Source: a virus (taxonomy: Duplodnaviria; Caudoviricetes). Taken from it: a stretch of DNA of 55,986 bases. Made by a program: the position numbers and the translations under genes. Positions within the stretch are counted from its first letter, which is position 1. Every line of letters begins with the position of its first letter. The stretch spans positions 1 to 55,986 of the IMG/VR virus record IMGVR_UViG_3300025127_005641. One strand, written 5' to 3'. Positions 10,756 to 41,620 of the stretch are shown here, piece after piece. The notes beneath the pieces were generated by a model. It did not search any database, was not told the origin of the DNA, and worked only from the letters and a program-made list of their open reading frames with translations.

Positions 10756-10825
10756 TGTTATAATTAGTATTGAATGCCGTAATGGGTTCACAAAATACAA
10801 ACTCGCTTAATAAGGAGCTACTATC
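10756..10825 (+). promoter_or_regulatory. extended -10 promoter plus ROSE-like two-hairpin leader of hsp20
   Basis: TGtTATAAT 10756-10764; hairpin 10771-10790; CTCGCTT/AAGGAG stem with bulged G masking the SD. Confidence 0.5.
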
Positions 10826-11257
10826 ATGGGTACACTAGCAAGATACCACGCTGCAAATCTTCCAGAATTGATGGAGAAGATTACAAGAAACAGCATAGGA
10901 ATGGATGATTATCTCAATAGATTTTGGGAAGATACATCTACATCCAATTATCCACCATATAATCTAATAAGTGTTAACAATCACGAATCAAGACTTGAGA
11001 TTGCACTTGCAGGATTTAAGAAAAAAGATGTAAATGTATATACAGAATACGGAAGATTGATTATTGATGGAAATAAAGAAGAGAAAGAAGAACCTGAGAA
11101 CTATGCTCATAGAGGGTTAGCACAACGTTCTTTCACAAGACAATGGGCACTCTCTGACGATACAAAAGTAGAGAATGTAAAATTTGAGGATGGAATGCTA
11201 ACTATTAAATTAGGTAAAGTAATTCCAGAGCATCATGCTCGTAAAGAATATCTCTAA
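10826..11257 (+). CDS. hsp20: small heat shock protein Hsp20
   Basis: NYPPYNL, LEIALAGF, HRGLAQRSF, FEDGMLTI. Confidence 0.93.
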   Translation: MGTLARYHAANLPELMEKITRNSIGMDDYLNRFWEDTSTSNYPPYNLISVNNHESRLEIALAGFKKKDVNVYTEYGRLIIDGNKEEKEEPENYAHRGLAQRSFTRQWALSDDTKVENVKFEDGMLTIKLGKVIPEHHARKEYL

Positions 11258-11281
11258 ATATAAATGAGTTCGAGATGGATC

Positions 11282-11308
11282 AGGGTTCCTTGACGGAACC
11301 CTTTTTTA
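11282..11308 (+). terminator. intrinsic terminator of hsp20
   Basis: AGGGTTCC-ttgac-GGAACCCT plus T-run. Confidence 0.8.
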
Positions 11309-11318
11309 TTGCTATAAT
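11290..11318 (+). promoter_or_regulatory. sigma70-type promoter overlapping the terminator
   Basis: TTGACG-N17-TATAAT with TG extended -10. Confidence 0.65.
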
Positions 11319-11324
11319 ATATGT

Positions 11325-11393
11325 GCCAGAGAGATACTGGCTGCGGTATTCCCCTTTGGTGGGTTCAGGAGTAGCGGCTATAGGAACCTACCA
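11325..11393 (+). ncRNA. candidate structured leader RNA (hairpin plus pseudoknot), family unassigned
   Basis: GC-rich island starting at the predicted TSS, with several complementary segments (see findings). Confidence 0.5.
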
Positions 11394-11411
11394 TATTATT
11401 AAACAAAACTA

Positions 11412-11723
11412 ATGTCAGTTAAACTTGCTTTATTAAAATCAGGTGAACATATTATCTCAGATCTTAAAGAACTTATATCTGATGATAAAGTATGTGGTTA
11501 TTTGTTTACCAAACCACATGTTGTAACTTATAAAAAAACAGCAATCGTTCTCACTGAAGAAAAAGAAACTTCTAGTGATTTGCAAGTTTCTTTAGCACCT
11601 TGGATTATTTTTTCTAAAGATGAAAAAATTCCTGTTTCACCAGAATGGATTGTATCGATTGTAGAACCTATAGATACAATTAGAAAAATGTATGAGGAAA
11701 AGATAAATGCAGAAAATAATTAA
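11412..11723 (+). CDS. conserved cyanophage hypothetical protein
   Basis: MSVKLALLKSGEHIISD...LAPW...WIVSIVEP, usual gene upstream of gp43. Confidence 0.75.
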   Translation: MSVKLALLKSGEHIISDLKELISDDKVCGYLFTKPHVVTYKKTAIVLTEEKETSSDLQVSLAPWIIFSKDEKIPVSPEWIVSIVEPIDTIRKMYEEKINAENN

Positions 11724-11961
11724 ACTTGTAGTTCTTGAGCATTATAAGTTAATTTCTAAAATTGAGGAATCTCCTTCTGAATTGGGAGAACCTGATTGTC
11801 TTTTAATTAATCCTTATGTTATTAAAGATGATAAATCTTTGGAACCATTTTTGGACGGATTAACTAAAGAGGTTGAATTTATGATGAGTTCTGATAAAAT
11901 ACTTACATTGGCTGAACCCACACCTACATTACTTGAAGATTATCAGAACATTATTAAATAA
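11707..11961 (+). CDS. conserved hypothetical protein
   Basis: ELGEPDCLLINPY...SSDKILTLAEPT; TAATG coupling to gp43. Confidence 0.72.
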   Translation: MQKIIKLVVLEHYKLISKIEESPSELGEPDCLLINPYVIKDDKSLEPFLDGLTKEVEFMMSSDKILTLAEPTPTLLEDYQNIIK

Positions 11962-14456
11962 TGAGATTTTATACAAATGTTCAAATGGTTGGAGATAACT
12001 TTCTGGTTCGTGGTGTTGAAAATGGTAAACACTTTGCAACCAGAGAAAAATTTTATCCAACCCTTTTTGTTCCTTCTAAAAATAAATCCAAATATAAAAC
12101 TTTGGAAGGAGATTATGTAGAATCAGTAGAACCTGGTTCTGTAAGAGATTGTCGTGAGTTTATAAAGAAGTATGACGGTGTGGAGAATTTTAGAGTATAT
12201 GGTAATGAGAGATTTATTTATCAATATATTTCTGAAAAATATCCAGAAGATGAAATTAAGTTCGATACAAGTCAGATTAAGATAACCACAATTGATATTG
12301 AGGTTGCATCAGAAAATGGATTTCCTGATGTAGAATCTGCTGCAGAAGAAATACTACTTATTTCTCTTCAAGATTATAATACCAAACAAATTCGCACATG
12401 GGGATTAGGTGCATTTAACAATAAACAAGAGAATGTAATATACAAATCATTCAAAACTGAATATGAACTTCTTCGTTCTTTTATTAATTGGTGGATGATT
12501 GAAGACAATACACCAGAGGTTATTACTGGATGGAATAGTGAATTATATGATATTCCATATTTGGCTCGTCGTTTAGATAGGATACTTGGTGAGAAGTTGA
12601 TGAAACGTTTATCACCTTGGGGTTTGGTGACTGAAAGAGAAATTCATATTATGGGTCGCAAAAATATTACATATGATATTGGTGGTGTTACTCAACTTGA
12701 TTATCTCAATCTTTATAAAAAATTTACTTACAAGGCACAAGAATCTTATAGGTTGGATTATATTGCTAGTGTTGAACTCGGACAGAAGAAACTTGACCAC
12801 TCTGAGTTTGATACGTTTAAGGACTTCTATACAAAAGGTTGGCAGAAGTTTGTTGAGTATAATATAATTGACGTGGAACTTGTTGACCGTTTGGAAGACA
12901 AGATGAAACTGATTGAACTTGCCATAGTTATGGCATATGATGCAAAGGCAAATTATGCTGATGTATTTTCTCAGGTTCGTATGTGGGATACGATAATTTA
13001 CAATTATTTAAAAAAGAAGAATATTGTTATACCTCCAAAAGAAAAAACTGATAAAGATGCAAAATATGCAGGAGCATATGTCAAAGAACCAATATCTGGC
13101 AAATATGATTGGGTGGTTAGTTTTGATCTTAATAGTCTGTATCCTCATCTTATTATGCAGTATAATATCAGTCCAGAAACACTCAGGGAAACTAGGCATC
13201 CCAGTGCGAGCGTTGAAGGGTTACTAAATCAAGAGATAAAGATTGATGGAGATTATGCAGTTTGTGCAAATGGAGCACAATATAGGAAGGATGTACGTGG
13301 GTTCCTTCCTGAACTCATGGAAAAAATTTACAAAGACCGCACCATCTACAAGAAGAAGATGCTTGCTGCAAAACAGGAGTATGAAAAAAAGAAAACGAAA
13401 ACACTTGAGAAAGAGATTGCTAGGTGTAACAACATCCAGATGGCAAGGAAAATTCAACTTAACAGTGCTTATGGTGCTATTGGTAATCAATATTTTCGCT
13501 ATTATAAACTTGCCAACGCAGAAGCTATTACACTATCTGGTCAGGTTTCTATTCGTTGGATAGAAAACAAAATGAATGCATACCTAAACAAAATACTAAA
13601 AACGGAGGGTAAAGACTATGTTATTGCTAGTGATACTGACAGTATCTATCTCAACTTGGGTGATCTTGTCGATAGGGTATACGAAGGTAGAGAAAAGAAT
13701 GCTAAAAGCATCGTGTCGTTCCTTAATAAGGTGTGTGAGGTGGAATTTGAAAAATATATTGAGAATTCTTATGAAGCGTTGGCCAAATACGTAAGTGCTT
13801 ATGATAATAAAATGGTAATGAAGAGGGAGAATATTGCCGATAGAGGTATATGGACTGCTAAGAAAAGATATATTTTAAATGTATGGGATAGTGAAGGTGT
13901 TCGATATGAAGAACCTAAACTCAAGATGATGGGTATTGAGGCGGTTAAATCTTCTACACCAGCACCTTGTCGTACAATGATTAAAGACGCACTCAAGTTG
14001 ATGATGAATGCAACTGAAGAAGATGTAATTGATTATATTGATGCTTGTCGTAAGGAATTTAAGACACTCCCACCAGAGGATATAGCATTTCCAAGGACTG
14101 CATCTGATGTTCGTAAGTATTCTGCATCTTCTACAATCTATGCAAAAGGAACTCCTATACATATACGGGGTGCATTATTATTCAACCATTATGTCAAACA
14201 GAAAAAGTTGACTAATAAATATTCACTTATCGGTAATGGAGAGAAGGTCAAGTTTCTCTATCTTAAAAAACCGAATATTATACAAGAGAATGTATTATCA
14301 TTTATTCAAGATTTTCCTCATGAACTTGGTCTTGACAAATACATCGATTATGACCTACAATTTGAGAAAAGTTTTGTAGAACCTCTCAAAGCAATTCTTG
14401 ATGCCATAGGTTGGAACATCGAAAAAACTGTAAACTTAGAACTATTTTTTACCTAA
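11961..14456 (+). CDS. g43: DNA polymerase gp43 (family B)
   Basis: ExoI DIEV, SFDLNSLYP, KIQLNSAYG, SDTDS, KKRY. Confidence 0.98.
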   Translation: MRFYTNVQMVGDNFLVRGVENGKHFATREKFYPTLFVPSKNKSKYKTLEGDYVESVEPGSVRDCREFIKKYDGVENFRVYGNERFIYQYISEKYPEDEIKFDTSQIKITTIDIEVASENGFPDVESAAEEILLISLQDYNTKQIRTWGLGAFNNKQENVIYKSFKTEYELLRSFINWWMIEDNTPEVITGWNSELYDIPYLARRLDRILGEKLMKRLSPWGLVTEREIHIMGRKNITYDIGGVTQLDYLNLYKKFTYKAQESYRLDYIASVELGQKKLDHSEFDTFKDFYTKGWQKFVEYNIIDVELVDRLEDKMKLIELAIVMAYDAKANYADVFSQVRMWDTIIYNYLKKKNIVIPPKEKTDKDAKYAGAYVKEPISGKYDWVVSFDLNSLYPHLIMQYNISPETLRETRHPSASVEGLLNQEIKIDGDYAVCANGAQYRKDVRGFLPELMEKIYKDRTIYKKKMLAAKQEYEKKKTKTLEKEIARCNNIQMARKIQLNSAYGAIGNQYFRYYKLANAEAITLSGQVSIRWIENKMNAYLNKILKTEGKDYVIASDTDSIYLNLGDLVDRVYEGREKNAKSIVSFLNKVCEVEFEKYIENSYEALAKYVSAYDNKMVMKRENIADRGIWTAKKRYILNVWDSEGVRYEEPKLKMMGIEAVKSSTPAPCRTMIKDALKLMMNATEEDVIDYIDACRKEFKTLPPEDIAFPRTASDVRKYSASSTIYAKGTPIHIRGALLFNHYVKQKKLTNKYSLIGNGEKVKFLYLKKPNIIQENVLSFIQDFPHELGLDKYIDYDLQFEKSFVEPLKAILDAIGWNIEKTVNLELFFT

Positions 14457-14626
14457 TGGATTTGCCTATTAACGACAAAGAACTTTCCACTATTGTCAGT
14501 TCACTGACTTTGGGTGGGGATACTGCATTATATGAAAAACTTAAATTAATTAAAGATGTTAGGGATGCAAATCCTGATGGCCCTTATAAAAAAATATTAC
14601 GTGATACTTATGGAATGGTAATTTAA
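14456..14626 (+). CDS. hypothetical protein
   Basis: MDLPINDKEL..., TAATG coupling on both sides. Confidence 0.6.
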   Translation: MDLPINDKELSTIVSSLTLGGDTALYEKLKLIKDVRDANPDGPYKKILRDTYGMVI

Positions 14627-41432: not shown

Positions 41433-41620
41433 TGTTGGACGCAACATGGGAGTGACTGAATAAACTTACTGGCAACCGCTAGTTAAGGTGATGAGACACA
41501 GGTGGTGCTGCTGCAGCGATGCAGAACCGATTCAACCAATCGGGTCTCAGGCAATAACGTTTTTACTTCTGTAGTAATGCCCGTTATTTGTTGGTACACA
41601 GGAACCCAACCTCCCTCTTT
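41433..41620 (+). ncRNA. manA RNA motif (probable)
   Basis: About 190-nt GC-rich multi-stem element (GGGAG/CTCCC closing stem, GAGAC/GTCTC, CTGCA-gcga-TGCAG, CCGATT/AATCGG, AATAACG/CGTTATT) upstream of talC, a context known for manA in cyanophages. Confidence 0.72.

Follow-up and report, generated by a model that had tools for sequence, protein, structure and literature searches.

An uncatalogued, strongly conserved pseudoknot RNA family of cyanobacterial myoviruses, predicted to begin early transcripts

The stretch of DNA analysed here (the window) is an IMG/VR virus record, IMGVR_UViG_3300025127_005641, of 55,986 bases with an estimated completeness of 29%, and is part of a T4-like cyanophage genome. 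Between hsp20 (10826-11257, + strand; PF00011 and phrog_432) and the first of two DUF6561 genes lies a 154-nt gap, within which sits the subject of this work: an element at 11325-11393 (+ strand), one copy of an RNA that is very strongly conserved among cyanobacterial myoviruses and belongs to an uncatalogued family. GC content is 0.50 over 11315-11384 compared with 0.24-0.33 in the flanks. An AU-rich linker of 18 nt (11394-11411, +), in whose sequence there is neither a Shine-Dalgarno-like run nor a terminator, separates the element from the next start codon, that of the first DUF6561 gene (11412-11723, +). The second DUF6561 gene (11707-11961, +) and the gene of the gp43 DNA polymerase (11961-14456, +) follow, the latter an open reading frame (ORF) whose blastn matches in P-SSM2, S-SM2 and others fall on DNA annotated 'gp43: DNA polymerase'. 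Both DUF6561 products belong to PF20198 (E = 1.7e-06 and 3e-25) and to PHROGs families (phrog_431 and phrog_483); the two genes are paralogues that overlap by 17 nt. They are downstream passengers and lie outside the RNA element.

The intrinsic terminator of hsp20, identified by a terminator scan and from its sequence at 11282-11307 (+; site 11282-11302 plus the T run), has an 8-bp stem, a 5-nt loop and a T run. Its loop and 3' arm form the -35 box of the next promoter, which consensus matching places at 11290-11318 (+). This is a sigma-70-type early promoter with TTGACG (11290-11295) as -35 box, a 17-nt spacer and TATAAT (11313-11318) as -10 box; it agrees with the consensus at 11 of 12 positions, and a TG precedes the -10 box. 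As the terminator-like site 11282-11302 overlaps the promoter, 11282-11318 is a composite terminator/promoter resembling the promoter-early stem-loops (PeSLs) of T4-type phages. The -10 box ends 6 nt before the first hairpin of the element, and transcription is predicted to start at about 11325. An earlier note made from the DNA letters alone (the original prediction) had the element begin at the predicted transcription start of this promoter, and the promoter spacing proved to be family-wide, as detailed below. The GC-rich island, the promoter, the first hairpin, stem B and the inner half of stem A were likewise all found where that note had placed them.

The RNA at 11325-11393 is a hairpin, P1, followed by an H-type pseudoknot. 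P1 (11325-11341, +), supported by sequence, folding and family covariation, pairs GCCAG (11325-11329) with CTGGC (11337-11341) around the loop AGAGATA. A UG linker (11342-11343; + strand, as are all the parts that follow) leads from P1 to the pseudoknot. The 5' strand of stem A, CGGTATTCC (11344-11352), pairs with GGAGTAGCG (11368-11376); that of stem B, TGGTGGGTTC (11357-11366), pairs with GAACCTACCA (11384-11393) in 10 bp including one G.U, and the conserved RNA, as delimited by covariation and by the covariance model R1, ends there. The helices are connected by loop 1, CCUU (11353-11356), loop 2, a single A (11367), and loop 3, GCUAUAG (11377-11383), which reads GC(G/U)A(U/C/A)AG in the homologues. 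The inner half of stem A pairs TATTCC (11347-11352) with GGAGTA (11368-11373). Further out, C11344-G11376 and G11345-C11375 pair and G11346.G11374 is mismatched. The original prediction had closed stem A differently, by GCTGC (11340-11344) with GCGGC (11374-11378); in that register columns 2 and 40 of the alignment pair in just 14 of 99 distinct rows, and columns 5 and 37 are unpaired in 21 of 99, so that the outer part has to be replaced by the better fitting continuous 9-bp helix. The homologues share the 9-bp stem A with its conserved G.G mismatch, have a stem B of 8-10 bp and loops of 4-5, 1 and 7 nt, and their core measures 53 or 55 nt. By the usual rules for H-type knots, such loop and helix lengths permit both helices simultaneously. 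Stems A and B had earlier been left either as a pseudoknot or as alternative folds: the data fit simultaneous formation as one pseudoknot, although a switch between the two is conceivable in silico.

Folded singly, the sequence gives a minimum free energy of -25.6 kcal/mol with z = -1.40, and 20 of 200 shuffles are as stable (+ strand); the - strand gives z = -1.07. Minimum-energy folding is unable to represent a knot and z-scores of single sequences are no evidence on their own. Because the lone fold is no better than chance, the case rests on comparison. The homologues were collected by a core pattern of 16 fixed bases in 23 columns drawn from a six-sequence alignment (A1), which occurs once in the window (0 expected). 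In IMG/VR it returned at least 120 matches, and all those listed, with the exception of L120, show the full architecture. A second scan with five core positions relaxed again returned at least 120 matches and added nine loci among those listed, the changes of which consist solely of the loop U becoming C or A, or of the last stem A pair changing from G to A with the matching C to U. L120, a chance match lacking the CUGC/CCUU context, was removed from all counts, and L082, the core of which is cut by a contig end, from the alignments. The homologous loci counted below number 125, the family total being larger or equal; merging identical cores left 114 distinct ones, and the alignment used for covariation (A2) holds 113 distinct cores.

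Counted over the two helices as delimited above, standard pairs occupy 93.2% of 2067 cells as compared with 74.0% after shuffling (0 of 500 shuffles reach the observed value), and 21.6-49.4% when the partner strands are slid against each other. Changes on both sides occur at 12 of the 19 pairs, with a covariation score of 0.528 versus 0.167. Stem A contributes six of its nine pairs (89.3% of cells paired) and stem B six of its ten (97.0%). No covariation signal comes from C11344-G11376 or from the three innermost pairs of stem B (UUC/GAA), all four of which are the same in every core. The position of G11345-C11375 is G-C in 87, U-A in 23 and U-G in 3 of the 113 cores and is never unpaired; that of G11346.G11374 is non-standard in 108 of the 113 rows. 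Among the variants obtained with the relaxed pattern, C14 to U is compensated by G30 to A in stem A, and contigs of relatives from RNA libraries carry G11371A, by which a U.G pair becomes U-A. The window itself (row 1 of A2 and of the alignment A3) forms every pair of the family except at the conserved G.G position. By this comparison of sequences both helices of the pseudoknot are strongly supported, and the pseudoknotted RNA proposed in the original prediction is borne out across the 113 cores.

The loops and junctions hold about 30 near-invariant nucleotides. All 113 cores carry CUGC and CCUU unchanged, although the first pattern did not require them; CCUU, which is loop 1, occupies columns 15-18 of A3. 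Equally invariant (113 of 113; columns 4-5) is the UG linker, demanded by neither pattern of the first IMG/VR scan. For UUCAG, GGC and AUAGGAA, invariance is in part a product of the search patterns, and that of loop 2 (column 29), imposed by both, is not independent. In loop 3 only the U at 11381 changes, to C or A, with the relaxed pattern among the matches listed (at least 120). P1, in contrast to the core, is a variable peripheral helix, the final pair of which uses the C of the invariant CUGC. Its pair types covary: pair 3 is U-A in 47, C-G in 21 and G-C in 10, pair 4 G-C in 58 and A-U in 32, and pair 5 A-U in 49, G-C in 24 and U-A in 16. Its span from first to last base ranges from 14 to 189 nt as called by script, some of the longest being mis-calls, and it accepts inserts of more than 100 nt that have no match in Rfam. 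In L011, L050, L058, L082, L092 and L100, P1 is enlarged by a conserved insert of about 100 nt, e.g. GCGATTCCCAGTAGGTAAATTTGGGC and GGTGAAACC, which resembles a second structured RNA domain and to which Rfam assigns no family.

A promoter-like site was detected in 108 of 118 distinct upstream regions of the homologues. In an anchored test the nearest such site was located without regard to pairing, and pairing was scored between the five bases from 7 nt past its -10 box and the five that finish with the C of CUGC. With P1 placed 7 nt past the -10 box, it is complete (five pairs) in 71 of the 108 promoter-bearing regions and has at least four pairs in 77; a shift of 1-3 nt leaves 0-13 of 108 with a full P1, the 13 (at shift -2) being a subclass with a 4-nt spacer between -10 box and P1. 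A simple search gives a spacing of 6 nt in 82 of 102 loci scored. Where coding sequence reaches up to the element, the promoter is embedded within its last codons. In this family the RNA is therefore predicted to begin where a strong sigma-70-type promoter starts transcription.

Rfam 15 (4227 models, among them SAM-II/V, preQ1, fluoride, guanidine-III, twister, pistol, hatchet and HDV-like RNAs) yields nothing at the element at gathering thresholds, including the known ribozyme families, and only manA elsewhere in the window. At E values up to 10, three weak unrelated matches appear in 11200-11500, the best with 21.2 bits (gathering threshold 55) and on the - strand. The same search on 16 homologous loci (136 kb) found one tRNA and nothing further, and ARAGORN found 0 tRNA or tmRNA genes in the whole window. 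That SAM-II/V, preQ1, twister and HDV would not match had been anticipated; a match to a known Rfam family and a lack of conservation or covariation, the two outcomes that were to count against novelty, were both looked for, and the result was no match and strong covariation. No account of the RNA was found in the literature, where the supplementary tables of PMC10690425, a catalogue of 10,006 viral candidate RNAs, and of PMC2864571, the additional files of which hold Ocean-VI and other motifs without Rfam numbers, might list it. The element carries all that defines the family, namely the blocks CUGC, CCUU, UUCAG, GGC and AUAGGAA, two interleaved covarying helices and the promoter spacing.

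In a blastn search of 11200-11500 against 50,697 phage records the element alone matches, with about 84% identity, and the flanks do not. The matches lie in unannotated DNA of P-SSM2, P-SSM5, S-SKS1 and the single-cell marine virus records AG-345-E02, -E08, -E15 and -F15. The 301-nt query from the window matches 15 cultured-phage records and a short variant matches 55, at one place per record (55 of 55); carriers of the latter include ACG-2014f isolates, S-SCSM2R, RB11-B, S-H68, S-B05, S-B43, S-SM2, Bellamy and SynMITS9220M01. GenBank entries of RB11-B, S-H68, S-B05 and S-B43 show coding sequences ('high light-inducible protein', 'hypothetical protein') that overlap the RNA core and are probably partly mis-called. 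The covariance model R1 recognises 11339-11393 with 74.3 bits (E = 1.2e-17), the next best score in the window being 9.6 bits. It finds one copy each in the complete genomes of P-SSM2, S-SKS1 and S-SM2, and none in those of S-SSM7, P-HM2, P-TIM68 and S-SRM01. An exception to the single copy is L124, with two pseudoknots in a 1.9-kb stretch (oriented 128-171 and 1302-1345), the first preceding tRNA-Arg, Gly, Asn and Val and the second, a GACAGGAA variant, preceding tRNA-Pro. Among 185,579 prokaryote species genomes a 21-base core pattern occurs in two contigs, both with the phage-style promoter, P1 and tRNA-Pro, which look like phage fragments binned into metagenome-assembled genomes. Mimicry of a host RNA was considered and set aside, as the 21-base pattern revealed no host copy in these 185,579 genomes, a search that a more diverged look-alike would escape.

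The surroundings of the element vary from phage to phage. A + strand tRNA stands directly behind it in 50 of the 125 listed loci (Arg(UCU) in 41, Pro(UGG) in 8 and Thr(UGU) in 1), and in every one of the 50 a gap of 1-4 nt separates the last stem B pair from the tRNA. In 44 loci an ORF starts 10-30 nt past the element; these ORFs fall, by eye, into about 17 N-terminal types, of which the DUF6561 type is the commonest. In 13 loci a second complete promoter (TTGACT-N17-TATAAT) follows directly, while 14 loci were classed as 'other' and four lie at contig ends. Upstream genes include purM, hsp20 and several unknowns, so a constant partner gene was rejected on both sides. The element follows hsp20 in P-SSM2 yet precedes a different gene there and does not adjoin gp43; in S-SKS1 it lies 30 kb from hsp20-gp43; in S-SM2 and Bellamy it lies inside the tRNA region, directly before tRNA-Pro, and in S-SM2 not next to gp43. 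(The tRNA-Pro annotated at 142269-142342 of S-SM2, NC_015279, disagrees with the sequence, in which the tRNA starts about 4 nt past the element, near 142215.) Together, promoter and RNA constitute a portable cassette that moves as a unit. Since this cassette is usually single-copy, independent of its neighbours and sometimes placed before a second promoter, it is not a sensor or operator of gp43. The proposed tie to the DNA polymerase transcript does not hold, as the same cassette stands elsewhere before tRNA arrays, some 17 unrelated kinds of ORFs or a second promoter, and an operator for gp43/RegA or a gene-specific riboswitch becomes unlikely. Pairing of the AGA of the P1 loop with the anticodon of tRNA-Arg, in the manner of a T-box, was also rejected: tRNA-Pro loci carry the same GAGA/GAAA loops (by eye), and large P1 inserts replace the loop.

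The original prediction named a riboswitch, ribozyme, operator or small RNA, a choice too open to fail, among which a small RNA fits best. We propose, with a probability of roughly 0.45, that the family would be a self-contained, nuclease-resistant early RNA that binds one conserved partner, an early product in its own right that would not control whatever gene comes next. Its transcription by host RNA polymerase would start at the near-consensus early promoter, and the triphosphate 5' end of the RNA would be base-paired and buried in P1. Where a tRNA follows, the cut of RNase P at tRNA +1 would free the RNA with a 3' tail of 1-4 nt. An RNA with almost no single-stranded ends is expected to be long-lived in bacterial decay (RppH, RNase E/J, 3' exonucleases). 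Because its 5' end would be paired and the RNase P site lies 1-4 nt away, the freed RNA would be of this kind; offering little grip to 5'-end-dependent RNases and 3' exonucleases, it would accumulate. The invariant pocket (UG, G.G mismatch and loops) would bind either a protein, of host or phage origin, or a small ligand; the roughly 30 near-invariant nucleotides suggest that a single partner is recognised specifically. In the window, the RNA would form the 5' end of a DUF6561-DUF6561-gp43 transcript, and would either remain attached as a protective cap or be cut off within the AU-rich linker. More speculative, and unlikely in itself, is that the RNA might be a high-copy, nuclease-proof early decoy or sponge, the pseudoknot pocket of which captures one conserved host molecule.

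Several points weigh against a self-contained RNA. The argument for nuclease resistance is inferred from general knowledge of RppH, RNase E/J and 3' exonucleases. RNA libraries were available from nine runs as assembled contigs, which are silent on the ends or levels of a species of about 70 nt, and the largest share of the words of the stretch in any run is 0.18. Compared over 10800-12400, their contigs cover 11340-11393 with a summed word depth of 50.9 in X2, as against 2-10.2 in the neighbouring bins; this peak consists of short pieces of relatives piling up on the conserved core, and conserved gp43 bins likewise reach 26-90. One of the pieces has the -10 box in its loose end, so that an origin from DNA or read-through is possible. 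The loci are not independent, with 114 distinct cores in 125, many of them close relatives, and the core was in part fixed by the patterns. The loci share no constant neighbouring gene, and the partner is only postulated. Finally, in 94 of the 125 listed loci the element abuts a co-directional tRNA or ORF directly, with no terminator between them, which equally fits a leader, and the two copies of L124 each head their own tRNA sub-cluster, as would be expected of a leader rather than of a trans-acting gene, the effect of which is independent of dose.

These last observations lead to the main rival, a cis-acting 5' leader module, which we hold to be unlikely though the most serious of the alternatives. 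The knot would stay on the primary transcript and act only on what follows, by shielding the 5' end from decay, by insulating the start region or the tRNA, or by setting the RNase P handling of the first tRNA. In favour of such a leader, the element is always at the transcript start and in the direction of the next gene, its spacing to the tRNA is fixed at 1-4 nt, and in the window there is no terminator-like site from the knot to the end of the scanned region at 14600. A generic stabiliser should, however, recur at many early promoters, whereas complete genomes carry 0 or 1 copy; the near-invariant nucleotides far exceed what a protective hairpin needs; and the second complete promoter in 13 loci makes the downstream gene independent of the knot. 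Moreover, tRNAs require no 5' protection. A new riboswitch, in which the pseudoknot would be a metabolite or ion aptamer controlling the downstream genes (here DUF6561 and gp43), is improbable. The SAM-II/SAM-V, preQ1-II, fluoride and guanidine-III riboswitches are H-type pseudoknot aptamers with interleaved helices and short conserved loops; the cyanophage RNA, a compact H-type pseudoknot with highly conserved loops, belongs to the same fold class, and in 44 of the 125 loci its position is 5' untranslated. It differs from these aptamers in having no match to an Rfam model or riboswitch class and neither an expression platform nor a gene association: no terminator/anti-terminator or other terminator-like site occurs past the knot in the scanned region, the ribosome-binding site is uncovered, the knot ending 10-27 nt before the start codons (18 nt in the window), and the downstream genes are unrelated and share no pathway. 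In the 50 loci with a tRNA 1-4 nt on, there is nothing translatable to control.

No less improbable is a new self-cleaving ribozyme, which might cut near the junction of P1 and the knot or at the 3' edge, trimming the transcript or freeing the tRNA. Its size, pseudoknot and conserved junction (UG, G.G, GC) would resemble small ribozyme cores, and it adjoins tRNAs in phages; against this stand the missing match to a ribozyme family in Rfam, the location at the very start of the transcript, where nothing upstream is to be removed, and RNase P, which already sets the 5' end of the tRNA. We consider highly improbable an RNA like put of phage HK022, which, as a nascent knot, would bind RNA polymerase and allow read-through of terminators. 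The element is promoter-proximal, could act while still nascent and stands at the head of long blocks of co-directional genes, and the next strong + strand terminator called by script lies at about 43.1 kb; yet the 3.2 kb behind it contain no terminator-like site, hence no nearby target for read-through, one copy per genome would serve just one of many early promoters, and its position differs between phages. The possibility that a 45-codon ORF at 11275-11412 is the functional unit can be practically dismissed. This small ORF does exist and ends in TAATG, its stop overlapping the DUF6561 start. It has no match to a Pfam or PHROGs family, it starts inside the hsp20 terminator, upstream of the -10 box, and the substitutions are compensatory for RNA pairing. 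As every frame is interrupted by stops in 40-73 of the 113 cores, whose lengths differ by 2 nt, no frame is open across the cores, and the ORF is therefore spurious.

Among known phage RNAs, pseudo-ToxI of phage phiTE is a promoter-driven, protein-free, pseudoknotted RNA thought to bind a host protein. The cyanophage RNA differs from it in not being tandem (one match in the window), in having hsp20 and DUF6561 and no toxin gene as neighbours, which also sets it apart from type III (ToxI-like) toxin-antitoxin systems, and in that no host copy was found among the 185,579 species genomes. The nearest analogue in context is the pair rnaC/rnaD (species 1 and 2) of the T4 tRNA gene cluster, small stable non-coding phage RNAs that are co-transcribed with tRNAs beside tRNA-Arg, in the order tRNA-Arg, rnaD, rnaC with gaps of 1 nt and 6 nt. 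Unlike the cyanophage RNA they are 3' of tRNA-Arg and not 5', measure 119 and 139 nt and are not immediately preceded by a promoter of their own. The likeness is one of context only: R1, run with filters off on T4 68500-74500, gives 12 matches (E 0.46-8.8), none of them within the rnaC/rnaD locus at 2409-2672 of that piece, and homology was rejected.

PeSL cassettes of T4-type phages were reportedly described by Arbiol et al. in 2010. As presented in the part of Comeau et al. 2014 (PMC4122927) that concerns them, they are mobile regulatory cassettes tied to gene shuffling and hyperplastic regions. The 11282-11318 unit is likewise a terminator stem-loop fused to an early promoter, and their mobility fits the movement of the cyanophage cassette. 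In that account, PeSLs are DNA and transcription signals only, whereas the cyanophage promoter adds a conserved, covarying RNA of 70 nt; cyanophages do not appear in the description ('cyano' 0 times). Structured RNAs of the same kind of phage genomes are manA, wcaG and PhotoRC-II (RF01745, RF01761 and RF01717), T4-like cyanophage RNAs established by comparative analysis (Weinberg et al. 2010, PMC2864571). As far as that source describes them, they are 5' untranslated motifs bound to a gene class and catalogued in Rfam, while the pseudoknot RNA is anchored to the transcript start and follows no gene class. The window carries a full-length manA RNA (RF01745, 187.2 bits, E = 1.1e-50) at 41433-41620 (+), its sole Rfam family and a known cyanophage cis-regulatory motif.

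An RNA of about 70 nt that occurs in more than 100 viral contigs and in the cultured model phages P-SSM2, S-SM2, Bellamy and S-SKS1, and that is driven by one of the strongest promoter types, is missing from Rfam. A large share of the main photosynthetic bacteria of the ocean falls victim each day to cyanophages of this type, whose early programme is poorly understood. If the RNA were a sponge, its target might be a protein of defence or RNA decay, or a signalling or metabolic ligand, the cell being disarmed or reprogrammed in the first minutes; it would then be the RNA counterpart of the protein sponges of phages. A small ribozyme or aptamer class confined to viruses would be just as new. Riboswitches, ribozymes and protein-binding regulators have all emerged in the past from orphan RNA classes of this kind. 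Cultured hosts and phages, exact boundaries, the corrected structure and the covariance model allow direct tests of function.

Some loci show further features around the cassette. A gene for a Phd-like antitoxin follows the element, directly or past tRNA-Pro, in one clade only (S-SM2, NC_015279, 142309-142479; Bellamy, NC_047838, 156767-156958; downstream ORFs of L077 and L108); these orphan antitoxins may be components of an anti-defence islet within the tRNA region. In L011, L050, L058 (just 3' of the core), L045, L057 and L073, conserved GC-rich stretches (CGAGGAGATGGATGTGCCTCG... or CAGTGGGCAAACGCAAGGCAGGGGTGA) replace the tRNA or ORF and may be other uncatalogued RNA modules. In L007, L022, L048 and L128, a hairpin GCCAG...CTGGC followed by ACCTTGAC stands right after the element or after tRNA-Pro, in the manner of a cassette boundary.

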